Virus record (IMG/VR): IMGVR_UViG_3300005265_000001
Span: 32,001 to 96,000 of that record
Length of the DNA: 64,000 nucleotides
Source of the DNA: a virus
Strand: one strand, 5' to 3'
The translations under genes were made by a program, and so were the position numbers. The stretch's first letter is position 1. Each line of letters begins with the position of its first letter. The notes beneath the pieces were generated by a model that did not search any database, had not been told where the DNA came from, and worked only from the letters and a program-made list of their open reading frames with translations. Below are positions 13,283 to 63,258 of this stretch, piece by piece.

Positions 13283-15658
13283 ATGGGTAGTTATGTATCA
13301 CCGGGTGGTTACGTTAGAGAAATAGATTGGAGTCTATATGCACGGTCTTTATCTTCAACTTCGGTTGGATTTATTGGTGCATTTGATAAGGGGCCAATAA
13401 ATGAGGCAACTTTAATTACTAATGTGGATGAATTAGTAAATGTTTTTGGCACACCAAATTTAAATACTTATGCGTGGGATGCCATAAAGCAATATTTAAG
13501 AAGTGGTAGAAGGGCTTGGGTTGTAAGAGTAGCGGATGATGATGCGGCAAAAGCAAAAATTGATGTAAATTCTGAAAATCAATATGGATTTATTTTGTCG
13601 TCAAATAAAAATTTGTTTACTTTTGATCCACCTTATGCTGGAACACTAAAAGGAAGTGAGGTTGAAACATATATTATAAATTCTTATGATGCCTTAAAAT
13701 TTAAGGTTGATGGGAGTGATATAGTTGCTGTTAATTTAACTTCTGGAATTAAAAGCGCACAAGCAATTGTAAATGAAATCAATTCACAAACAACTGGAAT
13801 TACGGCGGTTTATAATAATGGGTATGTTTGGGTTAAATCAAACACAATTGGAAGTTCATCTTCAATTGAGGCAATGGCGGTTGATTGTGTGAGACTTGAT
13901 GTTGAAAGTGTTTCAGGGGATTTTACAATTGGAGAAACAATTACAGGCGGAACGTCTGGGGCAACAGGGGTTTTATATGCCACAGATAATTCAACTTATA
14001 TGGATTTACATAGTGTAACAGGAACATTTTCGCCTTCCGAAACGGTTACAGGTGGAACATCTTCTGAAACGGCTGATATTACGGCGGCGGGTGTTCATGA
14101 AAGAACAGATGCAAATTCAACATTGGGATTTACAACAGGAACAGTTTACACTGGAAGTGACGGAAATAATACATTAAATGTTTCAATTGATGGCGGTGGG
14201 ACACAAACATTTAAAATGATTCCCGATACGGCAAATGAAACAATTTCCAAAACGGCACAACAAGTTGTAAATACTATCAATGCGTCAATTTCAGGCGGAA
14301 AGGCATATAAAACTTATGATGGAAGTGTCAAAATAGTCACAGATACGATTGGAAGTTCAGGTTCGGTTCAAGTTTTGTCTTCTTCAACGGCTGATACTGT
14401 TTTGGGATTTGATAATAATGTTCATTCTGGAAACGATTCAGCGGCTAAATGCTTTTCAGTGGAAGCTATTAATGAAGGTGTTTGGGGGAACAAAATATCT
14501 TTAATGATATCAACTGGAACAAGAACAAATACTTTTAGATTGGCCGTGATTTATGATTCAAAAACAGTTGAAGTTTTTAATAATCTTTCAAAGGTTCAAA
14601 CTTCAAGTGACTATTTTGTTAATAAAATCAATGGAGTATCAAGATATATTACAGTCACAGATAATACAGTTGAAACAAATATGCCGGCATTTGATACTTA
14701 TACTTTGGTTGGTGGAAATTCAGGAATTTCTTCTTTGAATGATGCTGATTATATAGGTATTAATACAGGGTCCACAAAAACAGGATTACAAATTTTTAGA
14801 AATGCGGAAAAATTGCAAATTAATTTACTTGCAATTCCTGGTATTTCAAGTGCGGCTGTAATTTCTGAAATGTTATCTTTGTGTGAGGATAGAGCCGATT
14901 GTATGGCAGTGGTTGATCCACCAAGGGGCTTGACACCACAAACAGTAGTTGATTGGCATAATGGAGAAGGAATTTGGTCTGGAAGTCATACGGCTTTTAA
15001 TTCAAGTTATGGGGCTTTATATTGGCCTTGGGTTAAAGTTTATGACAGTTATAATGAAATTGAAAAATGGGTTCCACCTTCAGGGTTTGCCTTGGATAGA
15101 ATGGCATATACTGATAAAATTGCGGAAGAGTGGTATGCACCTGCTGGATTTACACGTGGACGTTTAACAAATGTTCTTGGATTGGAATATGATACGTCAC
15201 AAGGTGACAGGGATTATATGTATTCCGATGGAAATGCTGTCAATCCAATTGTTGACTTTACACAAGAAGGTGTTGTAATTTGGGGTCAAAGAACACTTCA
15301 AAGAAAACCAACGGCACTTGATAGAGTTAATGTTAGACGGTTGTTACTTTATATTAGAAAAGTTGTAGCAACTACTACAAAATATTTCGTCTTTGAACCT
15401 AATGATAAATTATCATGGGCAAGATTACGAAATGCCCTTATTCCATATTTTGATTGGTTGTATGATCCTGAAACTGGTAGAGCATTGTATTATTACAAAA
15501 TTCAATGCGATAAAACAACCAACACAGATTTGGATATTAACAATGGAGTAATGAGGGTTAAAATCTTCTTACAACCGGTCAAAGCGGCTGAAATTATTGT
15601 ATCAGATTTGATTCTGTTACCAACAGGCGTGACTGCGGAAGATTATGTTATTTCATAA
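13283..15658 (+). CDS. Contractile tail sheath protein, T4 gp18-like
   Basis: YVSPGGYVREID, YWPW, WYAPAGFTRG, IWGQRTLQ...LDRVNVRRLL. Confidence 0.95.
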   Translation: MGSYVSPGGYVREIDWSLYARSLSSTSVGFIGAFDKGPINEATLITNVDELVNVFGTPNLNTYAWDAIKQYLRSGRRAWVVRVADDDAAKAKIDVNSENQYGFILSSNKNLFTFDPPYAGTLKGSEVETYIINSYDALKFKVDGSDIVAVNLTSGIKSAQAIVNEINSQTTGITAVYNNGYVWVKSNTIGSSSSIEAMAVDCVRLDVESVSGDFTIGETITGGTSGATGVLYATDNSTYMDLHSVTGTFSPSETVTGGTSSETADITAAGVHERTDANSTLGFTTGTVYTGSDGNNTLNVSIDGGGTQTFKMIPDTANETISKTAQQVVNTINASISGGKAYKTYDGSVKIVTDTIGSSGSVQVLSSSTADTVLGFDNNVHSGNDSAAKCFSVEAINEGVWGNKISLMISTGTRTNTFRLAVIYDSKTVEVFNNLSKVQTSSDYFVNKINGVSRYITVTDNTVETNMPAFDTYTLVGGNSGISSLNDADYIGINTGSTKTGLQIFRNAEKLQINLLAIPGISSAAVISEMLSLCEDRADCMAVVDPPRGLTPQTVVDWHNGEGIWSGSHTAFNSSYGALYWPWVKVYDSYNEIEKWVPPSGFALDRMAYTDKIAEEWYAPAGFTRGRLTNVLGLEYDTSQGDRDYMYSDGNAVNPIVDFTQEGVVIWGQRTLQRKPTALDRVNVRRLLLYIRKVVATTTKYFVFEPNDKLSWARLRNALIPYFDWLYDPETGRALYYYKIQCDKTTNTDLDINNGVMRVKIFLQPVKAAEIIVSDLILLPTGVTAEDYVIS

Positions 15659-31537: not shown

Positions 31538-33433
31538 ATGGAATTTGATGTTTTATATTCAACAGGATTTATAACAAACGGTGTTGGAAAAATTTCCAAT
31601 GATTCTGTTCTTGTAAATAGATACGATGTAACAGATTTTATAGTTCCTGCTAATGGTAAAATATCAAATGATTCTGTTCTTGTAAATAGATACGATGTAA
31701 CAGATTTTATCATTTCCGCTAATGGTAAAATATCAAATGATTCTGTTCTTGTAAATAGATACGATGTAACAGATTTTATAGTTCCCGCTAATGGAAAGGT
31801 TTCTAATGATTCCATTTTGGTAAACGCAAACCGTGGAATTGCTTTTAGATTGAGGGGTGCATATAATTATGAGCAATTAATTGATGAGCCTGAAAAAGTT
31901 ACTATTGATGGATATGCCGATTTAGATTTTAGTCATTTAGCAATTGATAAAATAATGACAAATTCAGAAGTTGATTCAACATCAGAATTGACTTCAATGG
32001 AACCTCATTTAGGAAATGTATTAAATGCAGATTCTTTAAATTCAATAGCTGAATTAACTGGTGGGAATTATTTTGAAGAGTATTGGGCCATTCCAACATC
32101 TAATTTGGGCATAAGTAGTCAAATTTCAAATACATTACTTGTTGATAAACTATTTTACGGTCTTGTTTTAGAATTAAATACTCAATTATCCAATTCATTA
32201 GTAGTTGACAGAATTTTTTATGAAAACAATTTTGAATCAAATGGAGAAATTCTAAACGATTTGGCCGTTGGTTTTTCTAATCTTAACAGCACAATTTTAT
32301 CACAAACATCATTAGAATCAAGTCAATTTATTAATAATAATGTTTATGTATCTGAACTTGATGGAAATACTGAAATTGATTTTTCAAGTGTTGGTATAGA
32401 TATTTTAGTTTTTCCATTGAATATTGTTTTAGACATTTTATTTGATTCTATAAATATGGAACAAGCGGTAAATCCATTAACAACCAATAGTAGTTTGGAT
32501 AGTCAACTTTCAACGGGTGTGGTTGAAGCCGTTCCAATGATATCAACTGCTAATATTGGGTTTGATGGTTTAGTTTTTGAATTTGAAAATTTGGCACCAT
32601 TTAACTCAAATACAAATATAACTTTCAATCTTGAAGAAGATGTAATTTCTCATGTTTTAGATACAAATTCTGATTTAGATTTTGATGGAGCAATAAGCGA
32701 TGTCATTATTAGGCCGTCCGAATTGACAACAGGAAATTCCTTATATTATTTAAAAATAATAGATGTTTTTATAAATAATGGTGTCATAAATGCTCAATCT
32801 GATTTAAGTTTCCTACCAGACACCAATATATATTTAACGGAGGCGATTTCTACAAATTTAATGTTGTTATATATGTTGGGGGAATTAAAAACCAGCAAAT
32901 TAACAACATATAGTAGATTAACATACAACATTGGAATTTTTTATGATAAATTAACTGGACATGATTATTTTGTAAAAACTGAACGATTTAATTATAGAGA
33001 GGAAAATAAAGAAATTTTAGAAAAAACGGGCAAAATAATAGGAACGGGGGTTGATTTTCCTTTTGAATACGATCATTATGGTGTTGATAGAAATGTTGGT
33101 ATTGAGGTAATAAATGATTCAATTGAAATGATTTTGTCAACTTGTAAGGGGTCAAGATTTTTTGAACCTGAATTTGGGTCGAATTTATGTAGATTGGTTT
33201 TTGAACCGATTGATAATATTTTGTTTGAAAAATTAAAGGTAGAAGTTGTTGATGCTTTGAGAAAATGGGAAAAAAGAATAAAAATAAGAAAGGTAGAAAT
33301 TTCAGATAAAGATATGAACGCTATAAATAATGGTATTGTTTATATAACTGTTTATTATTTAATCCGAAATACACAAATTGAAGGAAATTATGTTTATCCA
33401 TTCAAAACAGAAAATTATTATAAAAGGATTTAG
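31538..33433 (+). CDS. Repeat-extended protein with C-terminal gp25/GPW baseplate domain, copy B
   Basis: gp25 domain nearly identical to copy A. Confidence 0.8.
   Translation: MEFDVLYSTGFITNGVGKISNDSVLVNRYDVTDFIVPANGKISNDSVLVNRYDVTDFIISANGKISNDSVLVNRYDVTDFIVPANGKVSNDSILVNANRGIAFRLRGAYNYEQLIDEPEKVTIDGYADLDFSHLAIDKIMTNSEVDSTSELTSMEPHLGNVLNADSLNSIAELTGGNYFEEYWAIPTSNLGISSQISNTLLVDKLFYGLVLELNTQLSNSLVVDRIFYENNFESNGEILNDLAVGFSNLNSTILSQTSLESSQFINNNVYVSELDGNTEIDFSSVGIDILVFPLNIVLDILFDSINMEQAVNPLTTNSSLDSQLSTGVVEAVPMISTANIGFDGLVFEFENLAPFNSNTNITFNLEEDVISHVLDTNSDLDFDGAISDVIIRPSELTTGNSLYYLKIIDVFINNGVINAQSDLSFLPDTNIYLTEAISTNLMLLYMLGELKTSKLTTYSRLTYNIGIFYDKLTGHDYFVKTERFNYREENKEILEKTGKIIGTGVDFPFEYDHYGVDRNVGIEVINDSIEMILSTCKGSRFFEPEFGSNLCRLVFEPIDNILFEKLKVEVVDALRKWEKRIKIRKVEISDKDMNAINNGIVYITVYYLIRNTQIEGNYVYPFKTENYYKRI
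31586..31825 (+). repeat. 69-bp tandem repeat, about 3.3 copies (NGKISNDSVLVNRYDVTDFIVPA)
   Basis: aatgattc at 31598, 31667, 31736 and 31805. Confidence 0.9.
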
Positions 33434-35662: not shown

Positions 35663-38600
35663 ATGAGTTACTACAAAAGATATATAAAACCGCTTGAAGG
35701 TCCTAAAGATGTTGTGATATCTTGGACGGGAGATGTTGGAACAAGAACCTATTATTATGAAATCACCGTTTATAATCTTGACGGGGAATCAACGTCTTCT
35801 GGATTGATTTCAATTCCGAATTGTAAAGATGTTCTTGATGATTTGAATAAAGTCACTTTAACATGGAATAAAGTTAAAGGGGCTAAAGGATATAGAGTTT
35901 ATGGAAGAGATTTAAATTCAAGAACATTGATTAAAGATATTACAAATCCTGACATTACAAGTTATGTAGATAATGGTCTCGATTCTCCCGATGGCACAAC
36001 CCACGTCCCAACAGTAAATAGAACACATAGATTGGAATGGGATGAATTGTTATTTAGAGAAGGAAAAATAATTCAATCGGCTGAATTAAATGATATTCAA
36101 GGAATTTCTAATATCAATTTGCAGAGGTTGGGAGATAGATTTTATAATGATGGCGATATTATTAGTGGGGCACAATTAGTCACAAAACAATACAAAAGTT
36201 TGCAAATTACTAATATTTCAGGTGATTTTGAATTAAATGAATTAATTACTGGACAAACTTCTGGAACAAGTGGGAAACTTGTAAATACTGATAACAACAC
36301 CTATATTTTTGTGAGTGATTATAATGGCAGTTTTTCAGTTGGAGAAACAGTAATTGGGGGAACTTCGGGTAATACGGCGGTTATTTCTGGAATTTTGGAT
36401 CATTATGAGGCATATATAACAGATGGTGAAATATATCTTTTAGGAAAAATTAGAAATGTTGAAGGAACAAAAAATCCAATTGTTTTGACTGGAAGTGGAA
36501 TTGAAAAAATTGGGCTAAAATATGAAGAAAAAATAATAACTGAAAGTGATGATTCAATTTTACTTGACCCGGCAGAGGGCGTTCCTAATTATGGAAAACC
36601 TGGGGCGCATAGATTAACTTATGATTTTACATGGATTAAAGATGATCCTAATATGGTTGAAGTTTTTCAATTAAAAGATGGGAAACAATCAATTAGACGG
36701 GCAAGTATGAGTGAATTGGAAAAATCACTTGCACGAAGAACTTATGACGAAAGTGGGAACTATACAGTTACAGATGTTAAATTAACAGCTAAAAATCTTA
36801 CGAGTTCAAAATTTGAATTGTGGCTTGATCCAATGAAATGTTATGTTTTGGGATATGAATTGGAAAAAATAAATCCCGAAAAAATTGAAATTGATAGGAC
36901 ACTTGATAAGCAATATCAAGACGATGTTCAATTTCAATATACGGCACCAACACCAAATTTTATATATTTGGGAAATGAATTTATTTCTGATGTTGTAAAT
37001 GTTACTGGAATTAAGACAATTTCGGATGAAATGCAGTCTTTTGGGGCGTCGGCACCCAATAATCAAGTAACATTAAATCATACACCTGTATTTACGGTTG
37101 ATAGTATATGGTCTGGGCCGGGGGAAACAGGAACACAATTTATTGAGGGAAGTGATTGGGAACGAAATGGTAACACTGTTACAAATTTAACTGGAACAGC
37201 ACAAACATGGTATATCAATTATAAATACAATGCCTCTTTCCAAAAGGCAGTTAGAACGAAAACACATGAAACTGAAACTGGACTTGATTTTACCACAACA
37301 AATCCGGTCACTTTATCTCATTCTGATTTAATTAAAGTTACAGATTGTTATCAAGGGGCCGTTCATTATTCCGAAGGTGTGGATTTTGAAATAGATAACG
37401 GTCAAACTGATACGGCATATAATAACGCTACAATAACATGGTTGGGGGGAACTTTACCAACAAACTTAACACTTGAATATGATTATTGGGCACATACAGT
37501 TGAAGGGGATTATGTAAGTGCGGATTCTTATGATGTCTATGATGAAATTTTATCATATAAAGGGCAAAATTTAAGAGATGTTATTGATTTTAGAACAAAT
37601 GGGGAAAAACCGGCAAATCCTTCCGTTGTAGTGGTTGATTTTAATTATTATTTATCACGGGTTGATTTGGTTTATATTGATAGCAATGGAATTTTTAATT
37701 ATCAAAAAGGAAAACCAGAATTTAATCCAATTAGGCCAAAAGAGAAAGATGAGGTTTTGTATATTGCCGAAATTTGGTTGCCTCCATATATTTATAGCAT
37801 TGATGATGTTGCAATTGCATATAGAGAACCAAAAAGATTTACAATGCACGATATTCATTTATTGGAACATCGTATTGACCAATTGGAATATTATCAATCT
37901 TTGAATCAACTTGAAAATGAAGCTAATTATGAACCAACTGCTTATAATAAATCGGGAATTTTTGTGGATAATTTTACAGGTCATTCAAGAGGTGACGTAA
38001 ATCATCCTTCTTATAATTGCTCAATAGATGAAAAAGATAAGGAAATGTTATTGTCATTTACTTATGAAATTAAACAGTTGGAATATGAGCCTTCATTAAC
38101 TTCGGGTATTAAAACAGACAATGAAAAATTGTTTACACTTGGATATACAGAAGAAGAGTGGTTAAAACAACCATTTGCAACTGATTTTATAAATGTCAAT
38201 CCCTACGATGTTTTTGAATGGACGGGGGTAATGAAATTAACACCTGAAACTGATTTTTGGGTTGATACAGAACGTGTTCCTGATATTCAGGTTGATTTTG
38301 ATAATAATAACGCTGGATGGAAAAACGATGGATGGAAAAAATATTACGGAAGTTGGAGGGGACATTGGACAGGGTGGCATAGATACGCAAGAAATTGGCC
38401 TTATCATAAATCAAAACAATTTCCAAACGGGTCACAAATGAGAAATTTGTATGTGGCTAAAAGAACAGTAACAGCAATTAAACACGTTCCAAACACAGTA
38501 ACAAAATCACTTGGGGATAGAGTGGTTGATGTTAGTATTATTCCATACATTAGACAAAGACCAATTAGTGTGACTTGTGAACGAATGAGACCTGATACCG

Positions 38601-40009
38601 ATAATATTTCACTTTATTTTTCAAACATAAAGGTTGATTTTATTCCCGCTAATGCTACTTATCAAGGTTCGACGGCTGGAACTGGAAAAACAGACGCACA
38701 TGGCATTTTAAAAGGGTCATTTATGATACCAGAAGGTGTGGCGGTTGGAAAAATAAAGGTTGAAGCCAAAGATGATTTGGGATTAACGGCGTCTGCGGCA
38801 TATTATACAGCACAAGGAATGACACAAAAGAAAAACAAAACAATTTTGGGAATAACAAATTGGACAACCAAGAAAATGACTTGGACTGAATCTAAAATTA
38901 TTGCAAAACGATATGCTGATCCTCTTGCTCAAACATTTCTAACACCCGAAGAAGATTACATTTTTGTGTCTTCAATTGATTTATATTTTAAAACCAAGTC
39001 GGCAAATATTCCCGTAACTGTTCAGATTCATACAACTGATAATGGATATCCGGCGGATACTGTTTTACCAAACGCTTCAAAAACTTTATATCCAAGTGAA
39101 GTAAATATTTCAGACGATGGAAGTGCCGCAACACGCTTTACTTTTGATGACTTGGTTGTTTTACAGCCCGGAACGGAGTATTCAATAGTTATTTTGGCAA
39201 ATTCCAATGAATATTATATTTGGAAATGCACATTGGGCGGCAAAGATATTTCAAGTGGGAATCTTGTAACAAAACAACCTTATAATGGTGTATTTTTTAA
39301 ATCTCAAAATGCTTCAACATGGACAGCGGATCAAAATTCCGATTTGAAATTTAAGATAAACAGGGCAAAATTTCAAACAAGTGGAAGTTTGGTATTCAAA
39401 AATGTCAATTTGAATCAAGCCAATGGTGGATTCGGGGTATTTTCTCCAATGATTACAGATTTGGTTTTGGAGAACACCAATATCACTTATTTTTACTGTC
39501 TTGATGGAAGTGGGGCAATATGGAATCAATATGATCCCGCAAATGATGTTCAAATGAATGAACCAAAAGCCAATTTAATGATTAAGGCAGAATTTTCAAC
39601 CAATTCAGATTATGTTTCACCAATGATAAATAAAGAAAGATGTGGTGTAAATGGAATTTTGTTTAATCCAACTGGAGCCTATGTTAATTTTGAAACTAAA
39701 TTAAATAATGATTCCAATAACATAAAACTGATTGTTCAAGTAGATAAAACGGGTGTTGTTGGGGTTGATGGATTTAAACCATATTTTTCAACTTCAAAAG
39801 ATGTTTCAGTCGATCCCGGAAGTGAAACATGGGTTCCAATGACTCAAACGTCTTCAACTTATATTGATGATGGTGGGGCATTTTATGAATATTATTTTGA
39901 AAATTCTGGATTGAGTGTGTTTAATTATTTTAGAATAAAAATTGATTTGGATACAAATAATAGAGCATTTTCACCGAAATTGAGAAAATTGAGAGTAATA
40001 ACGGGGTAA
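35663..40009 (+). CDS. Large baseplate/tail protein, DUF4815/VrlC-like
   Basis: QSAELNDIQ, LARRTYDESGNY, GIFVDNF, NVNPY, DPLAQTF, WTADQNSDLKF. Confidence 0.8.
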   Translation: MSYYKRYIKPLEGPKDVVISWTGDVGTRTYYYEITVYNLDGESTSSGLISIPNCKDVLDDLNKVTLTWNKVKGAKGYRVYGRDLNSRTLIKDITNPDITSYVDNGLDSPDGTTHVPTVNRTHRLEWDELLFREGKIIQSAELNDIQGISNINLQRLGDRFYNDGDIISGAQLVTKQYKSLQITNISGDFELNELITGQTSGTSGKLVNTDNNTYIFVSDYNGSFSVGETVIGGTSGNTAVISGILDHYEAYITDGEIYLLGKIRNVEGTKNPIVLTGSGIEKIGLKYEEKIITESDDSILLDPAEGVPNYGKPGAHRLTYDFTWIKDDPNMVEVFQLKDGKQSIRRASMSELEKSLARRTYDESGNYTVTDVKLTAKNLTSSKFELWLDPMKCYVLGYELEKINPEKIEIDRTLDKQYQDDVQFQYTAPTPNFIYLGNEFISDVVNVTGIKTISDEMQSFGASAPNNQVTLNHTPVFTVDSIWSGPGETGTQFIEGSDWERNGNTVTNLTGTAQTWYINYKYNASFQKAVRTKTHETETGLDFTTTNPVTLSHSDLIKVTDCYQGAVHYSEGVDFEIDNGQTDTAYNNATITWLGGTLPTNLTLEYDYWAHTVEGDYVSADSYDVYDEILSYKGQNLRDVIDFRTNGEKPANPSVVVVDFNYYLSRVDLVYIDSNGIFNYQKGKPEFNPIRPKEKDEVLYIAEIWLPPYIYSIDDVAIAYREPKRFTMHDIHLLEHRIDQLEYYQSLNQLENEANYEPTAYNKSGIFVDNFTGHSRGDVNHPSYNCSIDEKDKEMLLSFTYEIKQLEYEPSLTSGIKTDNEKLFTLGYTEEEWLKQPFATDFINVNPYDVFEWTGVMKLTPETDFWVDTERVPDIQVDFDNNNAGWKNDGWKKYYGSWRGHWTGWHRYARNWPYHKSKQFPNGSQMRNLYVAKRTVTAIKHVPNTVTKSLGDRVVDVSIIPYIRQRPISVTCERMRPDTDNISLYFSNIKVDFIPANATYQGSTAGTGKTDAHGILKGSFMIPEGVAVGKIKVEAKDDLGLTASAAYYTAQGMTQKKNKTILGITNWTTKKMTWTESKIIAKRYADPLAQTFLTPEEDYIFVSSIDLYFKTKSANIPVTVQIHTTDNGYPADTVLPNASKTLYPSEVNISDDGSAATRFTFDDLVVLQPGTEYSIVILANSNEYYIWKCTLGGKDISSGNLVTKQPYNGVFFKSQNASTWTADQNSDLKFKINRAKFQTSGSLVFKNVNLNQANGGFGVFSPMITDLVLENTNITYFYCLDGSGAIWNQYDPANDVQMNEPKANLMIKAEFSTNSDYVSPMINKERCGVNGILFNPTGAYVNFETKLNNDSNNIKLIVQVDKTGVVGVDGFKPYFSTSKDVSVDPGSETWVPMTQTSSTYIDDGGAFYEYYFENSGLSVFNYFRIKIDLDTNNRAFSPKLRKLRVITG

Positions 40010-54399: not shown

Positions 54400-54960
54400 A
54401 TGAAAAAGAAGATAATCGTTTTTGGCGGTCATACAACCAAAAAACCCGGTTGTTTCAGAAATGGGATAAGTGAAGTTGCCTATAATTGGCAAATGGCAAA
54501 ATTGGTTGTAAATGGTGTTGATAGTGAAGATGTTATTTTAGGTCCTGAAATTGATTTACACGAAAGAATTAAATGGATAAATGAGAACTATCCAAAAGCT
54601 AAATTAGTAATGGAAATTCATTTAAATTGTTCTGAAAATGAAAAAGCGCACGGAACAGAAGTTTTATACAATGCTATTTGGAATTTAAAATCCCGTAAAT
54701 ATGCGAAATTATTTTTAAAAAACATTTGTATCAAATTATGGGGGACAAAAAAATCTGATAATTGCAGAGGAACTAAAACATGTCGGACATTAAAAAGAAC
54801 ACTTTCATTTTTAAAACACACAAAGCCTCCGGCAATTATTACTGAAAGTTTATTTATTTCAAATAATAAAGACAGTTATTATTTGGTAAAAGGTCTTGGA
54901 TTTGAAAATATAGTTGAAGCGCATATTGATACAATTAAACAAATTTTGGATGGTGAATAA
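54400..54960 (+). CDS. N-acetylmuramoyl-L-alanine amidase (Amidase_3), putative endolysin
   Basis: GGH...E...EIHLN...GTEV...PAIITESLFISN. Confidence 0.85.
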   Translation: MKKKIIVFGGHTTKKPGCFRNGISEVAYNWQMAKLVVNGVDSEDVILGPEIDLHERIKWINENYPKAKLVMEIHLNCSENEKAHGTEVLYNAIWNLKSRKYAKLFLKNICIKLWGTKKSDNCRGTKTCRTLKRTLSFLKHTKPPAIITESLFISNNKDSYYLVKGLGFENIVEAHIDTIKQILDGE

Positions 54961-54962
54961 AA

Positions 54963-55757
54963 GTGAAATACACTTTTTATGAAACAGTTGGAGATGTTTA
55001 TGGAAATGCGGTATCAAATGCAGATGTGTATGTGTATTTATCGGGAACTACAACAGCGGCAAAGGTTTATATAGATGGATCAGCGGTGACAACAGCACCG
55101 CAAACTTCAACAGATAGTTTTGGATTTTATACTTTTCAAGTTGATGATGATGATTATAGTTATACCCAAACTTTTGATATCAAGGTTGCTAAGAGTGGGT
55201 ATGTAGATAAATGGATAAAAAATATCAATATAATTGAAGGTGGTAAATTTGTTAGATTGGATGGAAATTCTTTACCAGAGGCCGATAACACCTATGATGT
55301 GGGGGATTCAACACATCGTTTCAAGAATATTTATGCGGTTAATTTCAACGGAACGGCGTCAAGTGCTACTTATGCTGATATTGCGGAAAAATATACAATT
55401 GAAGATATTGAAAATGTGAAGGTCGGAGATGTAATTATTATTTCAGATAAAGATGAATTTGATGGAAAAGTTTCAGATGAAATTGCTTCAAATAAAGTAA
55501 TTGGTGTTGTTAGTGAAAATCCGGCATTTAAAATGAACTCGAATTTGGAAAATGGAAAATATATTGCTTTGCGTGGTAGGGTAAAATGTCGAATCTTTGG
55601 TGTTGTATCAAAGGGTGAAGAACTTGTATCTTATGTTAATGGTTGCGCTATTGGTATAAATAATGTTAAAAATTTCCTGGAATCCTATCAACCAGTGGGA
55701 AAATCATTGGAAAATAAGCGGACTTCCGAAGTTGGATTGATTGAAATAATTGTGTAA
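54963..55757 (+). CDS. Tail fibre/spike protein with C-terminal intramolecular chaperone-like domain
   Basis: YADIAEKY, VIGVVSENPAF, IALRGRVKC, KGEELV. Confidence 0.6.
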   Translation: MKYTFYETVGDVYGNAVSNADVYVYLSGTTTAAKVYIDGSAVTTAPQTSTDSFGFYTFQVDDDDYSYTQTFDIKVAKSGYVDKWIKNINIIEGGKFVRLDGNSLPEADNTYDVGDSTHRFKNIYAVNFNGTASSATYADIAEKYTIEDIENVKVGDVIIISDKDEFDGKVSDEIASNKVIGVVSENPAFKMNSNLENGKYIALRGRVKCRIFGVVSKGEELVSYVNGCAIGINNVKNFLESYQPVGKSLENKRTSEVGLIEIIV

Positions 55758-55780: not shown

Positions 55781-56254
55781 ATGAATAAATCAATTGATGA
55801 ATTAATTCTTTTAATAACTACAAGTCGATATTTATCACGAAAACATTATGAGCGTTTTTTGGAAATGTTTGAAGATATCAAAAATGATAATGTTCAAACA
55901 AAATACAAAGACTTGATTATAGATTGTTATGAAAAAGACAGGGAAATGGTATCACTTTTAGTCAATATGGAGAGATATTTTGCTCAAAATATTGAGTATT
56001 ATGAAAATGATGGAAAGATTGGAATAAAAGATTTGATTGGATATAGAAATGTTATAGATAGAAAGGTGGGGGATGAGCTTTTTGAAAAATATAAAGACAC
56101 AGAGGAAATAAAAGAAATCGTAAAGGGGTTTAAGAATCCTTTTTATACTATGAAAGCCATTTTTCTTGTATTTTTGGCTTTTCAAAATTCCGGTTCACCA
56201 TATTCCAAAGGTGACAAATTTGAACTTACAAAATTATTTAGTGAAGATGAATGA
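55781..56254 (+). CDS. Hypothetical protein coupled to the radical SAM operon
   Basis: ATGA overlap with 56251. Confidence 0.65.
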   Translation: MNKSIDELILLITTSRYLSRKHYERFLEMFEDIKNDNVQTKYKDLIIDCYEKDREMVSLLVNMERYFAQNIEYYENDGKIGIKDLIGYRNVIDRKVGDELFEKYKDTEEIKEIVKGFKNPFYTMKAIFLVFLAFQNSGSPYSKGDKFELTKLFSEDE

Positions 56255-57453
56255 AACGAGATTTTTTTCAGAAAAAAGTATTAAATCGTATTCACTCGAT
56301 AGAGCTTGTAATAAGCGAAAAGTGTCAAAATGCTTGCACTTATTGTTACAGAAATCGGTTGCATAAAAAATCAAACATAATAACAGTAAATCCCAAAACA
56401 ATTGAAATTTTTATTAAAAATCTATATGAATTATTTCCCGAATTAACAAAAATCGAAAGATTTGAACTATTTGGGGGAGAACCTTTTTTAGATTACAGCC
56501 ATATATTTTCAATCTTTGAAATACTTAATAAATTTGATAATATTAAGAAAGTTGTAGTGCCCACCAATGGTAGATTACTACTATCTTTGAATAAAATTGA
56601 TAGAGAAAAATTATTAAATTCTTGGAATTTTGAGGTTGGAATATCAATGTCTATTGATGGAATAAACGGGCAAAGAAATTTATCAAATTTTGGTAGAATG
56701 TTGGGATATGAGGAAATTGAAGAGAATGATGAATTTTTTAAGAATTTGAGAGATTTACAAAAAGAAATTGGTTTTGGCGTTCATCCAATGCTATATTTCG
56801 GAAATAATCAAAATTGGGTAGAGCAAGTTAAAAAATGGGTGGAACATGGATTTATACCATATTTATTAGAAATTAGACATCCTCTAAGCAATGATGAAAT
56901 ACTTGATTCAGTGAAAAATCTTGTATTTGTGGCTAATTACATTTTTAAAAATGTTGATAAAAAACATCATAAAAGATTCAATACAATTTTCCCCATAAAA
57001 GTTCCAAGGGGGCTTGGTTGTTCAGCGTTGACAACTATCACTATTATGCCCAATGGGGATATTCCCTTTTGCCATAGAGTTATAGAACCGCCTTATGTAA
57101 TGGGGAATGTTTTGACAAAACAAATTGATTACTCTAAATTTGTAAATTATAAAACATTCGATCACCGAAACAATCCTGAATGTGTGGGTTGCCCTATTAG
57201 AAAAATATGTTCAGGGCAATGTCTTGGGGCGGCGTATGAATATTATAGAGGCTATCCTTGGTTGAATATTCCTTCAATTTGTCAATATAATTTATTGAAA
57301 TATTATGTTTTTTCAGAATTTTTTGAAATATGGAACAATTTTTTAATTGAAAATAGAGTAAATAAAAAAGATATATTGAAAGCATTGAAACGCAATAATA
57401 CAATAAAAGAAAAAATGGGAAAAATGATGAAGGAAATAAAATGTGGGATTTAA
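56251..57453 (+). CDS. Radical SAM/SPASM maturase 1
   Basis: CQNACTYC, FGGEP, SIDG; SPASM cysteines C..PNGDIPFC..GNV..CVGC....CSGQC...C. Confidence 0.92.
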   Translation: MKRDFFQKKVLNRIHSIELVISEKCQNACTYCYRNRLHKKSNIITVNPKTIEIFIKNLYELFPELTKIERFELFGGEPFLDYSHIFSIFEILNKFDNIKKVVVPTNGRLLLSLNKIDREKLLNSWNFEVGISMSIDGINGQRNLSNFGRMLGYEEIEENDEFFKNLRDLQKEIGFGVHPMLYFGNNQNWVEQVKKWVEHGFIPYLLEIRHPLSNDEILDSVKNLVFVANYIFKNVDKKHHKRFNTIFPIKVPRGLGCSALTTITIMPNGDIPFCHRVIEPPYVMGNVLTKQIDYSKFVNYKTFDHRNNPECVGCPIRKICSGQCLGAAYEYYRGYPWLNIPSICQYNLLKYYVFSEFFEIWNNFLIENRVNKKDILKALKRNNTIKEKMGKMMKEIKCGI

Positions 57454-58967
57454 ACATATATGGATTTAGCACAATAGGACCCGCAACACCCAAAGAATAT
57501 AGTATTAATTTGGGCGATTGGGAAATTATTGATATACCTTTTGATGTGGATAAAGAAGAGGCAAAAAGATATATTTCCAATTTTTTGGATAAAATAGTTG
57601 CCATTGAAATGCCCACTTCATTACAATGTAATTTGAGGTGTAAATATTGTTATATTACTAATCCGAAATATAAAAATACGGTGGTAAAATCAAGTCAAAT
57701 AGAAAAAATTATCAATAATGTTAAGAATTTGCTTCCAAACTTCAAAGAAAATTCTAAGGAAAAGATATATTTTACACCTTGGGGGGCGGAACCCCTTATC
57801 AATATTAATACAATTGAGGTAATTTATAACAAAATTAAAGAGTTCAATTATAAAAATGTCACAATGAATTTTTCCACAAATGCTACGATATTAAACGAAA
57901 AAGTAAAAGATATTCTTTATAAATTGATTGATAAGGATATAATTAAAGATATTCAAGTTTCTATTGATGGTCCACCCGATATTCAAAACTATTATAGGCC
58001 ATTTTTAAATGATTCTCCAAGTTTTGATTCTGTTGTTGAATTTGTAAAATGGATAAAAGAAATAGAAAGAGAGAAAAAGAAAAAAATTTTGCATTTTTGT
58101 TCTACCATTTATTTAAGAGACGAAAATTTTATTAATGATTGGTATAAGGCAACAGATTTTTTCTCAGATAAAGATAATGAACTATTTTTTACACAGGTTA
58201 TGCCGTCACGTATGAGTGGTGAGGATTTAACAAATGATGAAATGGTGGAAATTTTTGTTGAAGCCATGAGACAAAGCACGGATTTACTTACTAAAAAGGC
58301 TAAAAACCAAAATATTGGGTTAGTTGATTTTTATACAAATAAATTGTTTGGTATTCCTTCGGCGTGTAGTAGAACAGCATATCCTTATTGTTCCGCTTTA
58401 AATACTCAAATTGCAATTGATTTGGATGGATCATTATATCCATGTCACGGTCCTATAACAAATCCAATAAACGAAAAACCGTGGGTATGGTTTGGAAACA
58501 TTTTTGAAAAAAAGATATCATATAGAAGACTAAAAAGGGCAATTTTTTCATTATACGGTGGAACAATTTTTAAAGGGAAATGCAATGATTGTATTATTTA
58601 TCAATTAACTCGATCCCCTATTTGTTGGAGTTGTTATTCTCATAATTTGGCAGTTTCAAATGAACCTTTAACAGATAGTATTTATAGATGTTTTGCCTTT
58701 AATAAATCATTTAAATATTGGTTGATTCAAGCACTTGTATCTATTGAAAATTCTTATGTTTTTCCATTATTAACTAAAAAAATGATAGAGTTTTTGGGTA
58801 TTGAAAAAATTGAATCTAATGTAAAAAATAAGATATCATATAAAACTTCAAGTAAATATACATACGGTTATGATGGGGTTTTGGTAAATGCCTGTAAAAA
58901 AATGGAAAAAAATATTAGTTTTGGTGGATATGTTTCTGAATGGTGGCGAATGGATGATTTTAATTAA
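57441..58967 (+). CDS. Radical SAM/SPASM maturase 2
   Basis: CNLRCKYC, WGAEP, STNA, SIDGP; YCSAL..DGSLYPCH..GNI..CNDC..CWSC..C. Confidence 0.92.
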   Translation: MWDLNIYGFSTIGPATPKEYSINLGDWEIIDIPFDVDKEEAKRYISNFLDKIVAIEMPTSLQCNLRCKYCYITNPKYKNTVVKSSQIEKIINNVKNLLPNFKENSKEKIYFTPWGAEPLININTIEVIYNKIKEFNYKNVTMNFSTNATILNEKVKDILYKLIDKDIIKDIQVSIDGPPDIQNYYRPFLNDSPSFDSVVEFVKWIKEIEREKKKKILHFCSTIYLRDENFINDWYKATDFFSDKDNELFFTQVMPSRMSGEDLTNDEMVEIFVEAMRQSTDLLTKKAKNQNIGLVDFYTNKLFGIPSACSRTAYPYCSALNTQIAIDLDGSLYPCHGPITNPINEKPWVWFGNIFEKKISYRRLKRAIFSLYGGTIFKGKCNDCIIYQLTRSPICWSCYSHNLAVSNEPLTDSIYRCFAFNKSFKYWLIQALVSIENSYVFPLLTKKMIEFLGIEKIESNVKNKISYKTSSKYTYGYDGVLVNACKKMEKNISFGGYVSEWWRMDDFN

Positions 58968-58992
58968 ATTATTATTTTGAGGTGTTTGTAGA

Positions 58993-59442
58993 ATGGGTTA
59001 TACGTGGACGGATGAGACTTTAGATTCCGATGATGATATTAGAACGTTTCATGTTTCTGAATTAAGAACAAATCTTAATAATGAACGTAACAGAAGAAGT
59101 ATGACTCAATTTAGTTGGACAGATGATCCATTGGATTCAGATACTAAGATAAAAACCGTTCACATAAATGAATTACGAAATGGTTGTGATACAACACCTG
59201 TAAATACAGGGTGTTCTGCGGAAAAAGGAAGCTACTATTCCGATAATGATTCAACTGTATATTCAGATAAAGATGCTACGATTCATTCTGATGAAAATAC
59301 TGGAATAAATTCCGGAAGAGATGTTACGGTGTATAACGGGAGAGATGGGAGCTATCATAATGGATTTGATAGTGACCAATGCGGAACAGATTATGGGGGC
59401 GATGATAGTGATAAAAATAGCGGGATTCATAATGTGGGGTAA
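58993..59442 (+). CDS. Putative rSAM substrate 1: two leader-like domains + tetrad-repeat core
   Basis: Two copies of WTD..L......H..ELR, then 19 tetrads. Confidence 0.65.
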   Translation: MGYTWTDETLDSDDDIRTFHVSELRTNLNNERNRRSMTQFSWTDDPLDSDTKIKTVHINELRNGCDTTPVNTGCSAEKGSYYSDNDSTVYSDKDATIHSDENTGINSGRDVTVYNGRDGSYHNGFDSDQCGTDYGGDDSDKNSGIHNVG

Positions 59443-59445
59443 AAA

Positions 59446-59787
59446 ATGAGTTGGACAGATGACCCTCTTACAGCGGAACTTACAAAAGTAAAAACAATTC
59501 ATATAATTGAATTAAGAAATGCTATTGATGATTTAAGTGAGGGTTGTGTTTCTTATAATAGTTCTTATGATTCGGATAAAGACGCCACAGTTGATTCAAG
59601 TAAAAATAATACGGTAGATTCTACACAATATTCTGGGGCCGATTCATCTCAAAATAGTTCGGCGGATTCCACAAAAGATAATTCAGTAGATGGCACAAAC
59701 TGGAACACAGATTATTATGCTAATCATGGAACTCACCACAATTCATGGTGTTCTGGAAACTACACAGATAGGTGTATAGGATATTAA
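59446..59787 (+). CDS. Putative rSAM substrate 2: one leader-like domain + tetrad-repeat core
   Basis: SWTDDPL...KTIHIIELRN, then 20 tetrads. Confidence 0.65.
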   Translation: MSWTDDPLTAELTKVKTIHIIELRNAIDDLSEGCVSYNSSYDSDKDATVDSSKNNTVDSTQYSGADSSQNSSADSTKDNSVDGTNWNTDYYANHGTHHNSWCSGNYTDRCIGY

Positions 59788-59815
59788 ATTTAATGAATAT
59801 GATTGTTTGTAACAT

Positions 59816-59838
59816 GGGGATGTCAATCCCCTTTTTTT
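59816..59838 (+). terminator. Intrinsic terminator closing the rSAM operon
   Basis: gggga-tgtcaa-tcccc followed by a T-run. Confidence 0.7.
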
Positions 59839-59843
59839 ATGTC

Positions 59844-59883: not shown

Positions 59884-62800
59884 ATGCCCGATATTTATCC
59901 AAGTTCTCTAAATTCAAATACAAGTTTTTCTTTTAATTTGGGCGGAGATTTTTTAAAATATAGAAGCCTTACAATAGAGAGTAAGGATGTTGAAATTGAT
60001 ATTGATCCAATTATTTCAAACGTTGAATTAACATATTCTATTGAAGTATCTGATTTTTATTTGGGTTTAAGTTCTGAAATATCATTTAATTTTGTGGTTG
60101 GATTTTCTAATATAAATCCCACTTTAACAAGTTATTCTAATCTGTTTTCAGATTTGACATTAAAAGATTTTCAACTTAATTCGTATTCCAATTTATCATA
60201 TTTACTTGATGGAGATTTTTTAAAATATCGAAGTCTTGTTTTACGGGCATATAATGTAATAATCGAAGATAACACTGAAATAGAATCAAATGTAAGTGTT
60301 GATTTTGATGTAAATATAGAAAATGAAACAGATATTTTTTCTACTAATACAAACATAAATTTTCAAAATATTGATATCATTTTTCAAGCCGAAATATTAA
60401 ATTCAATAAGTCAAATAATCACTGAAATTGAGTTAATAAAATCAGTTGATTTACTTTCTACGAATACACTTTTTAGATTTGATGGAACTGCTACTGGAAA
60501 TGTGGTAATTTCGGACTTATTACAGACTCAGGCTGATTTACTATATTCTAAAATAGTAACTGGAAATGCAATTGCAAGTGAAACACTTGATTCCAATTCC
60601 AAATTATTTTATTCTGGACTTATTAACAATAGTGTTGTAATAAATGCCACAAGTTTAGGCACAAATGTAATTTTAGATTTTGTAGAATATACTGAAAAAG
60701 TTGCAAAAACCTTAAATAGTCAAACTCATTTATCTGTTTCAAGTCCTGTTATTGATAAAGTATTAAGAAATTTTATTATCCAAACCAATTCAAGCATAGT
60801 ATTTTCTTTTGTAAAAGGCATTTCAATTTCAAATAATATTTTTGAATCTGATTCTCAATTATCGTTTAATTATGCTATTGGTAAGGTTGTCTCAGATTTT
60901 CAATTAAATGTTGATTCTGATTTGTCATATTCCGGCGTGGCTACCGATATAGTAATTGATTCCGAAAAACTTGATGCGGTTTCGGAACTTAATTATGGTG
61001 GTGTTGTAACTGGAAATGTCATAAGCAACTTTTTGTTAGAGGTATCAAGTGATTTAATTTATAGTAATTTTGTAATTGATACAATAGTAAATACCATTCC
61101 TTTAATTTCAAATGTCAATTTGTTGTCTTCTTTTGTGATTGGAACGTCAATTACAGCAAATTCGATGGGATTAGATACTGAAATTGACTTTAATTATGTG
61201 GTTGGAACGGTTGTAAGAAATTTTAATTTAGATTCGGTATCTGAAATATCATTTTCAAGTGTTTTTCGTGATACTATAATAGAAGTTCAGGAATTAAATT
61301 CCAATACTTCTTTACAATTTGATTCAGTAATTATTGGAAATGTTGTTTCTAATTTTCTATTTGAAACGTTAAGTGAAATAGATTTTGGTCTATTTATTGA
61401 CAATGTTGTAAGCAATTTTAATTTAGATTCAACTTCTTATTTAGATTTTTCTAATCTTTTGATTGATACTGCCATAACACCTAATATATTAAATTCATTG
61501 GTTTCAAATGTCTTTGATTATGCGGTTGGAAAGGTTTTAAAGGATTGGTTATTACAAACTGTTTCAGATATTAACTTTCATGTTGTGGTTGGTAGTGTCG
61601 TTTCAAATTTTACGTTTGGCACTAATACTTTCTTAACATTTTTGAAAACTGTAATTGGAAATGTTGTTACAGTAGATAGTTTAAATGTTGATCTTGATAT
61701 TGATTTTAATATTGTAAAGGGGCATGTTTTAAGAAGTGGTGTTTTATCTACCAATTCCAAACTGAATTTTGAGAAGATTGTAGATGTTAGCATACCTCAA
61801 AACTCCATTGAAACAAATTGTAATATTGGTTTTGATGGTGTTGTAACTGGTATAGCAATTCAAAATAATGTTTTTGATGGGTTTGTAAATATTTTTTATG
61901 ATTCTATTAGGGTTGGAACGGTTGTAAGAAATTTTGATTTAATATCAAATTCAAATATTTTGTTTTCAAATTTAATAGTAGATGTAATAATATCAAAAAA
62001 TAATGAGATATTAAGCAATTCTGATTTATTGTATCAATCGATAGTTACTGGAAATGTGTTAATTGTAAACGAAATTGAAAGCAATTCTACTATTAATTTT
62101 CAAAATATTGCAATTGGAAAAGTAATACATTCAGATGTTACTAATGTTTATACTGATATAAATTCAACTTTTGTAATTGGAAATGTTGTTAAAGATTTTG
62201 ATTTATTGAGTGATACTACAATTTCTTTTGAAAAAATAATCATTGATACTGTAATTGACAATAATATTCAAACAACACAAACCGAAATTAACTTTGGAAA
62301 TATCGAAATATCTGTTTTCGATATTGTTTTAAATTCGGCGGCTTCTTTAATATCTATTCCTGAAATTGAAGTAGATGGAAACATAATAGAATCGGCAACA
62401 AGTCAATCTTTTCAAAACATACAAATTGAGTTTGAAATAAGTCAAATTGATTCTTTTACAAATATATTGTTCGATTTTTATATTGATAGAATTATAAAAA
62501 ATAATTTCTTAGACACTGTTTCGGAAATTTCAAATGTTTTTTATGTAGATAAGATATTTACAGATAATAAATTAGAGACAAACGGTGAAATAACTTTTGG
62601 ATTCTATGTTGATGTTGTATTAGATAACAATGTAATTACCTCAAATTCACAATTAAATAACACCTATGAATTACAATTTATTCCAAAGGCACTTGAAACA
62701 GAAGGATCAATTTCATTTAATTTTATCATAGATATTTATTTGTATTTAGATAATTTGGAAAGTTTTGTTAATTTATATATTGACATTATTCAAAAAGACT

Positions 62801-63258
62801 TTTTATTGTGGATTTATTCATTTCTTTCATATACAGGGCGGCTTGATTTTACTGAATTATGTAATATTTTCAATGTTTACAAAGAGGACAGGAAATTTTC
62901 AGTTGAAAGAGAAGATAGGACCTATCACATTTATGCTGAAACATATTCACAAGAAATTGAAATTCAAAACATTTTTAGAATCCAAAAAGAAAACAGAACC
63001 TACCATATCTATGCTGAAACATATTCACAAGAAATTGAAATTCAAAACATTTTTAGAATTGAAAGAGAAGATAGGACCTATCACATTTATGCCGATACAA
63101 TTTCCCAAGAAATTGAATTGATTGATATTTTCAAAATACCAAAAGAAAATAGGGTATTTAAGATTTTTTCGGAGAATAGAGTATTTGAAATATCCAAAAT
63201 TGATAGAATTTTTAATGTATTCAAACGGACTAAAGTTTATAAATTATTATGCAAATGA
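59884..63258 (+). CDS. 1124-aa degenerate-repeat protein, putative virion fibre
   Basis: Recurrent G.VV..F.L.S.S.I.F units similar to the N-terminal parts of 28329, 31538 and 33437. Confidence 0.6.
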   Translation: MPDIYPSSLNSNTSFSFNLGGDFLKYRSLTIESKDVEIDIDPIISNVELTYSIEVSDFYLGLSSEISFNFVVGFSNINPTLTSYSNLFSDLTLKDFQLNSYSNLSYLLDGDFLKYRSLVLRAYNVIIEDNTEIESNVSVDFDVNIENETDIFSTNTNINFQNIDIIFQAEILNSISQIITEIELIKSVDLLSTNTLFRFDGTATGNVVISDLLQTQADLLYSKIVTGNAIASETLDSNSKLFYSGLINNSVVINATSLGTNVILDFVEYTEKVAKTLNSQTHLSVSSPVIDKVLRNFIIQTNSSIVFSFVKGISISNNIFESDSQLSFNYAIGKVVSDFQLNVDSDLSYSGVATDIVIDSEKLDAVSELNYGGVVTGNVISNFLLEVSSDLIYSNFVIDTIVNTIPLISNVNLLSSFVIGTSITANSMGLDTEIDFNYVVGTVVRNFNLDSVSEISFSSVFRDTIIEVQELNSNTSLQFDSVIIGNVVSNFLFETLSEIDFGLFIDNVVSNFNLDSTSYLDFSNLLIDTAITPNILNSLVSNVFDYAVGKVLKDWLLQTVSDINFHVVVGSVVSNFTFGTNTFLTFLKTVIGNVVTVDSLNVDLDIDFNIVKGHVLRSGVLSTNSKLNFEKIVDVSIPQNSIETNCNIGFDGVVTGIAIQNNVFDGFVNIFYDSIRVGTVVRNFDLISNSNILFSNLIVDVIISKNNEILSNSDLLYQSIVTGNVLIVNEIESNSTINFQNIAIGKVIHSDVTNVYTDINSTFVIGNVVKDFDLLSDTTISFEKIIIDTVIDNNIQTTQTEINFGNIEISVFDIVLNSAASLISIPEIEVDGNIIESATSQSFQNIQIEFEISQIDSFTNILFDFYIDRIIKNNFLDTVSEISNVFYVDKIFTDNKLETNGEITFGFYVDVVLDNNVITSNSQLNNTYELQFIPKALETEGSISFNFIIDIYLYLDNLESFVNLYIDIIQKDFLLWIYSFLSYTGRLDFTELCNIFNVYKEDRKFSVEREDRTYHIYAETYSQEIEIQNIFRIQKENRTYHIYAETYSQEIEIQNIFRIEREDRTYHIYADTISQEIELIDIFKIPKENRVFKIFSENRVFEISKIDRIFNVFKRTKVYKLLCK
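62903..63120 (+). repeat. 78-bp tandem repeat, about 3 copies (RTYHIYAETYSQEIEIQNIFRI)
   Basis: ttgaaagagaagataggacctatcacatttatgc at 62903 and 63059, with an intermediate copy. Confidence 0.85.

Follow-up and report, generated by a model that had tools for sequence, protein, structure and literature searches.

What does a bacteriophage do with two radical S-adenosylmethionine (SAM) enzymes encoded among its tail-fibre genes? The question is posed by an operon in the 64,000-nucleotide stretch of viral DNA analysed here (the window; positions 32,001 to 96,000 of IMG/VR record IMGVR_UViG_3300005265_000001), in which an open reading frame (ORF) of 157 codons (ORF157), two radical SAM/SPASM genes (rSAM1 and rSAM2) and genes for two small proteins (pepA and pepB) lie in succession. 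Radical SAM/SPASM enzymes are best known as makers of small bioactive peptides. A reading made from the sequence alone had taken the two small proteins for the substrates of the two enzymes, each with a leader and a core as in peptides made on the ribosome and modified after translation (RiPPs). The comparative evidence presented below upholds this enzyme–substrate relationship, in that the linkage recurs in many unrelated phage contigs and involves a conserved pair of enzymes, and sequence comparison indicates that the operon is a real, conserved phage-borne radical SAM/SPASM maturation module. On balance we favour a reading in which pepA and pepB would be the substrates of rSAM1 and rSAM2, giving a modified or cross-linked ladder that forms a tail-associated fibre or stalk component and not a free antibiotic-like peptide.

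Ladder proteins and their linkage to an enzyme pair

Both small proteins combine an N-terminal recognition ('leader') domain, built from WTD..H..ELR units, with a core. Three copies of the unit had been noticed across the two proteins, and exactly these three are found, two in pepA and one in pepB, and nowhere else in the 105,897-bp contig to which the window belongs. The cores, described earlier as low-complexity, are present, but that label is too weak: they are strict four-residue ladders which run from the first core cysteine to the C-terminus, through 19 tetrads in pepA and 20 in pepB. In pepA, the first position of successive tetrads reads C K Y D Y D H N N D Y D H D C Y D N H. A residue from the set C, D, N, Y, H, W and F occupies position 1 in 18/19 tetrads of pepA and 20/20 of pepB, and 0 of 200,000 shuffles equals either value; with the set restricted to C, D, N, Y, H and W, 38 of the 39 tetrads of the combined cores conform, including all 20 in pepB. 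Of the 39 position-1 residues, 33 are D, N, Y, H or W and five are Cys. Small residues (S, G, N, A, T) predominate at position 2 and S, T, D or G at position 3, and position 4 varies. Relatives exchange D, N, Y, H and F for one another at position 1 in the family alignment (A3), in which the first core cysteine of pepA, Cys74, is invariant. Cysteine makes up 3–4% of the cores, with 2–3 residues per core and three in each of pepA and pepB.

The sequence-only reading named the absence of linkage between leader-domain and rSAM genes elsewhere as grounds for abandoning it. Instead, linkage is present in phages whichever of the two genes a search starts from. A same-strand leader-domain ORF lies within ~3.5 kb in 14 of 160 loci that had been gathered solely for an rSAM/SPASM gene, and a search with the leader alone returned two viral loci, both with an rSAM gene directly downstream. 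The leader-domain ORF is present in 26/36 loci of the rSAM-b family, the lineage of rSAM1, versus 20/205 other rSAM/SPASM loci, counts which include some duplicates of one contig and some short loci.

The two enzymes of the window have counterparts that travel together. rSAM1 and rSAM-b are reciprocal best matches, as are rSAM2 and rSAM-a, and the tree places rSAM1 with the rSAM-b clade (support 98/93). Ladders of the D/N/Y/H type, of 19–45 tetrads and with no register shift, are found in the window and in loci L001, L012, L059, L075, L101, L167 and L168, and these loci carry two distinct rSAM/SPASM enzymes. In L167 (44% identity to rSAM1) there are four leader–ladder proteins, and the enzyme genes follow the order rSAM-b, GT1 glycosyltransferase, A1-type rSAM-a; L168 (36% identity to rSAM1) has rSAM-b, rSAM-a and then two leader–ladder proteins; and in L001, which holds the closest relative of rSAM2 with genomic context, two ladder proteins homologous to pepA follow the enzyme. 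A member of a pepA-like cluster is on a 42,863-bp contig, and the rSAM2 homologue P0004 is likewise on a contig of 42,863 bp. A second group of loci (L002, L004, L007, L010 and L115) carries ladders with Cys at the repeated position, and the enzymes of those scanned (L002, L004 and L010) score 234–303 bits on TIGR04115, making them near-members of the CXXX-repeat system described below. The enzyme clade thus tracks the core, TIGR04115-like enzymes occurring with Cys ladders and the rSAM-a/rSAM-b pair with D/N/Y/H ladders.

A further locus, L165, encodes a 481-aa protein (L165:8001-9446) in which three leader units are followed by ~350 residues of an eight-residue Cys/Asp repeat (CxxCDxDx-like), with an rSAM gene directly following. 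To judge from its sequence, this core falls between the Cys-ladder and Asp-ladder types.

Among known systems, the closest is the CXXX-repeat rSAM system, which has been defined computationally in NCBIfam/TIGRFAMs (maturase TIGR04115, TIGR04119 and related accessories, target repeat PF27846). As in that system, an rSAM/SPASM maturase here adjoins a target with one special residue at every fourth position; the first repeat cysteine is shared, both systems lie among tail-fibre genes, and the WTD..H..ELR leader precedes the repeat in the phage CXXX members L002, L004, L010 and L115. The window differs in that position 1 is Asp, Asn, Tyr or His in place of a cysteine every fourth residue, and in that its enzymes fall far short of TIGR04115 (33.3 bits for rSAM1 and 62.3 for rSAM2 versus a cut-off of 350) and form the separate co-conserved pair rSAM-a and rSAM-b. 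Nor is there a TIGR04119/TIGR04116-type accessory in the window, where ORF157 is without an NCBIfam match; the 169-aa neighbour in L010 matches TIGR04119 weakly. In its design and through its leader domain, the window is, on sequence grounds, a cysteine-poor variant related to the CXXX-repeat system. To our knowledge there is no published biochemistry for the CXXX-repeat system, and our literature search found none; searches of the literature on phage RiPP/SPASM, phage tail-fibre thioethers and TIGR04115 found no description of the system in the window.

The two enzymes and the modification they may install

The earlier assignment of both enzymes to the radical SAM/SPASM class is confirmed by Pfam, NCBIfam and the cysteine motifs. 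Both proteins match Radical_SAM, Fer4_12 and SPASM in Pfam, with PF04055 above and PF13186 just under the cut-off in each, and rSAM1 also passes TIGR04085 (44 bits versus a cut-off of 27). Each has a CX3CX2C motif (residues 25–32 in rSAM1 and 63–70 in rSAM2) and a seven-Cys C-terminal SPASM region, with 8–9 Cys past residue 250. The seven conserved SPASM cysteines of rSAM1 lie at residues 257–344 and the SPASM cysteines of rSAM2 at residues 317–417; the cysteines of rSAM1 that are invariant in the rSAM-b alignment (A7) are C25, C29, C32, C257, C274, C311, C314, C320, C324 and C344. The best NCBIfam matches are all peptide maturases (PapB, SCIFF, QhpD, DynA and the CXXX-repeat family), and all are far under their family cut-offs. 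By sequence, the nearest solved chain to rSAM1 is TigE (8vpo, 6e-9) and that to rSAM2 is CteB (5wgg, 2e-15), with residues 39–341 of rSAM2 aligning with residues 81–371 of CteB. rSAM2 has 28 metagenomic homologues at 36–44% identity, and its family alignment is A1. The AlphaFold2 (AF2) model of rSAM2, with a predicted template modelling score of 0.79, has CteB, anSME, ChlB and TigE as its nearest folds. At its N-terminus, where CteB has a RiPP recognition element (RRE), the model shows a short beta-hairpin and a helix before the barrel, with a predicted local distance difference test score (pLDDT) >90 for residues 19–51. Judged from the model, this conserved N-terminal extension (residues 1–51; 57441-57600) may be a minimal leader-binding element that replaces the RRE.

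From the sequences we infer how leader binding by the enzymes, the site and chemistry of modification and a destination in the virion may fit together. The WTD..H..ELR units would form a recognition domain that resembles a RiPP leader and is probably kept, not cleaved, and the enzymes would act repeatedly along the four-residue ladder that starts at the invariant cysteine. The likeliest target would be the residue at position 1 (Asp, Asn, Tyr, His, Trp or Cys), and what results would be a ladder bearing covalent modifications or cross-links, a fibre or stalk component associated with the tail of the myovirus. The residues at position 1 share a beta-CH2 next to a pi system or a sulfur, so that a radical at C-beta would be stabilised. 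SPASM enzymes abstract hydrogen from Asp C-beta in the case of PapB and QhpD, from C-beta in the triceptide, darobactin and dynobactin enzymes, and from Cys or Ser C-beta in that of anSME. With 2–3 Cys in each core, a modification at every tetrad cannot be explained by thioethers. In CteB the substrate cysteine reportedly binds an auxiliary cluster, and by analogy the invariant first Cys of the ladder might set the register through such binding. A bolder version of this proposal, which we regard as possible rather than probable, is that every fourth residue of a protein 76–180 residues long receives a new modification or cross-link of a non-thioether kind from the rSAM-a/rSAM-b pair, placed on C-beta of Asp, Asn, Tyr or His, to yield an enzymatically 'laddered' phage fibre.

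Other SPASM enzymes offer partial parallels for such a reaction. In the PqqE/PqqA, triceptide (3-CyFE), darobactin and dynobactin systems, the enzymes join an aromatic ring to a nearby side-chain carbon by a C–C or C–O cross-link, in PqqA across an E-x3-Y spacing. In pepA, Tyr or His alternates with Asp or Asn at i to i+4, the same spacing, which by analogy brings to mind E-x3-Y in PqqA as well as C-x3-D in the substrates of PapB. The similarity of the window's enzymes to this group is generic only (DynA 65 bits, YhhB 56, GrrM 42), however, and ladders of the L075b type are almost without aromatic residues. The cyclopropylglycine synthases TigE and TvgB (PDB 8VPO) modify one residue per short tandem repeat, TIGSVS or TVGG (PMC10878394); they provide a precedent for repeat-by-repeat processing without cross-links, and it is TigE that is the nearest solved relative of rSAM1. 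A Gly-Tyr-Trp motif, which is said to be unique to all cyclopropyl synthases, gives a Tyr ligand to their auxiliary cluster I (PMC10878394), whereas this motif is not conserved in alignment A7 (G-Y-P-W in rSAM1 and G-D-M-F in its clade), and position 1 of the window's repeat is not Val or Ile.

A GT1 glycosyltransferase gene lies in or beside six D/N/Y/H operons (L167:9196-10215, with homologues in L173, L168, L169, L186 and L101), and no GT1 homologue was found in the window's 106-kb contig. Many tetrads read N/D-x-S/T, and from sequence glycosylation of the ladder is possible in some phages.

Fibre component or free peptide

Whether the phage modifies its own virion proteins or makes a RiPP that is released at lysis had been left as two options by the sequence-only reading. 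Domain fusions and the fibre genes alongside now favour the first, and the free RiPP is the less favoured. In L001, the second ladder protein consists of leader, ladder and Gly_rich_2 (PF21722, a tail-fibre domain), and a protein of L002 consists of a GDSL esterase, leader and Cys ladder. Fibre, spike or baseplate genes neighbour the operon in the window, and the neighbours in relatives include tail-spike, fn3, DUF2793, phage-tail-repeat and baseplate genes. Since the leader–ladder module of relatives is fused to fibre, esterase or Hint domains and has fibre genes around it, a free peptide is less likely than a structural protein that is retained, and these sequence contexts suggest that the enzymes probably modify a part of the virion fibre. 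The Hint (intein-like) domain directly follows leader and ladder in L010:3606-4721 and L168:11722-12672; the two Hint parts are homologous (2e-29), and the arrangement suggests from sequence a self-cleavage or ligation at the C-terminus of the ladder.

The recognition domain itself reaches beyond the ladder proteins. A full HMMER search with pepA yielded 643 clusters at E <= 0.001, a subset of which shares the full architecture of two-unit leader, invariant Cys and D/N/Y/H-rich core. Residues 1–70 of pepA are modelled with pLDDT >90 as an extended segment and a helix, twice over (AF2, with 76 relatives in the alignment); no solved relative of the leader domain was found by sequence, and no solved or viral fold matches it (Z below 5). 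Proteins with the double unit at their extreme C-terminus, with endings like ELRxAVxALE, include P0083, P0127, P0139, P0161, P0167, P0173 and ~90 further ones; among those sampled are Kelch, M4 (thermolysin-like) peptidase, S8 (subtilase) peptidase, CHRD and Ig proteins. That these carriers are truncated at contig ends was considered and rejected, as their tails are fixed at 2, 4, 5 or 7 residues with conserved endings. No protein of this C-terminal class was found in IMG/VR.

Several observations weigh against reading pepA and pepB as modified fibre components. Neither rSAM1, rSAM2 nor ORF157 has a PqqD/RRE match in Pfam, although a structure-based RRE search was not made, and the grouping of rSAM2 and its 28 homologues with the rSAM-a clade has weak support (76/92). 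The pepA core has no confident AF2 structure that would show a fibre fold, and neither pepA nor pepB has a fibre domain in Pfam or PHROG, their incorporation into the virion being suggested by the fusions in relatives. The leader hidden Markov model (62 positions, built from 150 relatives) finds the leader-like domain as the genuine C-terminus in 94 of the 148 top hits that carry it. Because many larger proteins without a ladder end in it, the leader-like domain may, on this sequence evidence, serve more generally in docking or oligomerisation and not be an enzyme-recognition element in origin, the enzymes having come to recognise it. The GT1 genes of six related loci mean that other modifications may also target the ladder. 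Finally, an M28/M42-like peptidase is encoded between the ladder substrates and the rSAM pair at L075:6082-7017, with an identical copy in L181 and a weak match in L185. In that lineage it may be the peptidase for the leader, whose removal would thus be allowed for in some systems.

This last locus bears on the view that the operon makes a free RiPP: a host or distant protease would cut away the leader, and lysis would set free the modified ladder peptide, which would act as a bacteriocin, a signal or a molecule directed against competitors. Leader, core and rSAM/SPASM enzymes are the classical RiPP layout, and pepA and pepB are small. We nevertheless consider such a product quite unlikely: as the sequence-only reading had it, no peptidase or exporter family was found by family searches among the ORFs flanking the operon, where the sole peptidase-type match nearby is a weak one to Peptidase_G2 (an intramolecular chaperone) in the tail-fibre-like gene at 54963-55757. 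The module is fused in relatives to enzymes or fibre domains with the leader internal, the systems lie consistently among tail-fibre genes, and the cores, with 76–180 residues in strict register, greatly exceed the usual RiPP core in length.

A different account would limit the chemistry to a few Cys-to-Asp/Asn thioethers per protein, the four-residue period being purely structural, as an Asx-turn or metal-binding fibre ladder. It draws on the thioether-forming systems PapB/freyrasin ranthipeptides, QhpD/QhpC and the SCIFF maturase CteB, which are the best family and structure matches of the window's enzymes: PapB is the best NCBIfam match for both, QhpD and SCIFF maturases rank high, and CteB is the nearest solved relative of rSAM2. 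Enzymes of this type act at C-beta or C-gamma of Asp or Glu in periodic CX3D-type motifs, and QhpD modifies a protein subunit, not a free peptide. The invariant first core Cys, the three Cys of each protein and the mixed Cys/Asp ladder of L165 would fit such an account, as would the residues at position 1, since C, D, N, H and Y can all be counted as classical ligands of metals. Yet the PapB family (NF047865) scores are far under the cut-off (64 and 111 bits versus 340), CteB has an N-terminal RRE of a kind that Pfam does not find here, and the window's cysteines are too few for a thioether in each repeat, with one alone invariant in alignment A3. For one to three cross-links, a pair of distinct co-conserved enzymes would seem more than is needed, and L075b, with a single Cys in its 19 tetrads, retains both of them. 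We therefore judge thioethers alone to be unlikely. It is very unlikely, in our estimation, that the ladder proteins go unmodified, with a structural, docking or metal-binding role, and that the enzymes act on another virion protein, a host protein or a small molecule. The leader-like domain is widespread without a ladder, as a C-terminal domain, and rSAM/SPASM genes of unknown role are common in large phages (PMC5332604), but the tight same-strand adjacency of ladder genes to these particular rSAM clades recurs in very divergent loci, whichever gene is searched for first, and enzyme clade goes with core type. The reading of pepA and pepB as modified fibre or stalk components is thus the one that we carry forward.

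The operon in its phage and beyond

The five ORFs, their place in the tail/lysis region and the closing terminator were all recovered as first described, and their coordinates are collected in the table.

Features of the operon (positions are those of the window; aa, amino acids)
Feature	Position	Strand	Description
ORF157	55781-56254	+	157-aa orphan ORF, probably translationally coupled to rSAM1; membership of the system doubtful
rSAM1	56251-57453	+	400-aa radical SAM/SPASM enzyme, 'rSAM-b' lineage
rSAM2	57441-58967	+	508-aa radical SAM/SPASM enzyme, 'rSAM-a' lineage (A1 subfamily)
pepA	58993-59442	+	149 aa; leader and ladder core
pepA recognition ('leader') domain	58993-59211	+	residues 1-73, two WTD..L..H..ELR units
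pepA ladder core	59212-59442	+	19 tetrads, invariant Cys74 to C-terminus, plus stop codon
pepB	59446-59787	+	113 aa; leader and ladder core
pepB recognition domain	59446-59544	+	residues 1-33, one WTD..H..ELR unit
pepB ladder core	59545-59787	+	20 tetrads, Cys34 to C-terminus, plus stop codon
Intrinsic-terminator-like hairpin and T-run	59816-59841	+	operon end; hairpin and T-run located at 59816-59831

The window is one strand of a low-GC (~30%) myovirus recovered from a marine sediment metagenome. It contains a tail sheath gene (13283-15658) together with tape-measure-like and baseplate wedge genes. An Amidase_3 endolysin gene (54400-54960) and then the tail-fibre-like gene already mentioned lie 3' of the baseplate/fibre region and 5' of the operon. 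The start of rSAM1 falls inside an ATGA overlap with ORF157, and rSAM1 and rSAM2 overlap by 13 nt; given these overlaps, translation of the three genes is probably coupled. Directly 3' of the operon, 59884-63258 encodes a 1124-aa protein of ~21-residue repeats, probably a fibre, for which neither Pfam nor PHROG gives a match, and farther 3' are a glycosyl-hydrolase-like gene and a LamG gene. Elsewhere in the window, a 1448-aa protein (35663-40009) has very strong matches to PHROGs 358 (800 bits) and 877 (731 bits), both of them families of unknown function. At the contig end (L247:9321-10697; genome 104520-105896) is a gene for the large subunit of ribonucleotide reductase, which contains an intein splicing domain. 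Identical copies of the operon proteins are also found on a 172,161-bp contig, and the 106-kb contig may therefore be incomplete.

The part played by ORF157 is doubtful. It had been counted as part of the system, but it is not conserved: it matches no Pfam, NCBIfam or PHROG family, it has no counterpart in the closest loci L167 and L168, and neither a homologue among 5.8 billion clusters nor a lead in the ESM Atlas was found. Translational coupling is all that ties it to the enzymes. Many related loci do have an accessory of similar size, the conserved ~160-aa family A4, which matches no known family and accompanies rSAM-b in 21/36 loci; most of the more distant D/N/Y/H loci have a member (L059:9480-9983, L075:9440-9904, L101:9156-9698 and L012:8012-8500), and it is absent from the window, L167 and L168. 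ORF157 was tried as a member of A4 and rejected, with an hhalign probability of 0.1 and an HMM score that ranks 470 among 1,963 shuffles.

The operon recurs intact, at ~99% identity, in contigs which a second study recovered from three samples. Among the single-nucleotide polymorphisms (SNPs) listed, to which 16 further SNPs outside the list are to be added, synonymous changes exceed non-synonymous ones in both enzyme genes (11 versus 7 in rSAM1 and 10 versus 8 in rSAM2), pepA has a single change, K78R, at its sole non-conforming position 1, and pepB has none. Among GenBank phages, searches with the operon DNA, rSAM2, pepA, a strong leader, rSAM-b and rSAM-a all came back without a match. A metagenome scan with alignment A1 (generic rSAM patterns) gave only distant enzymes, and a scan of genome contigs with alignment A2 gave no relative. 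A family-specific DNA pattern searched in IMG/VR returned only the contig of L001 again, three other matches being chance ones, and no RNA dataset is listed as containing the operon. An anaerobic host, hinted at earlier from the dependence of the enzymes on Fe–S clusters, is weakly indicated; the source is marine sediment, yet rSAM genes have been reported in marine T4-like viral genomes (PMC5332604).

A conserved enzyme pair is thus found with long periodic proteins in a tail-fibre module, in the window and in at least 20 other uncultured phage contigs. The system is small, with two enzymes and a substrate of 113 aa. If the bolder version of our reading is true, it would represent a new class of RiPP-like chemistry and the first virion appendage to be matured by radical SAM enzymes; and if every tetrad of the ladder is modified, this would be new enzymology, by which phages would covalently engineer their own adsorption apparatus.

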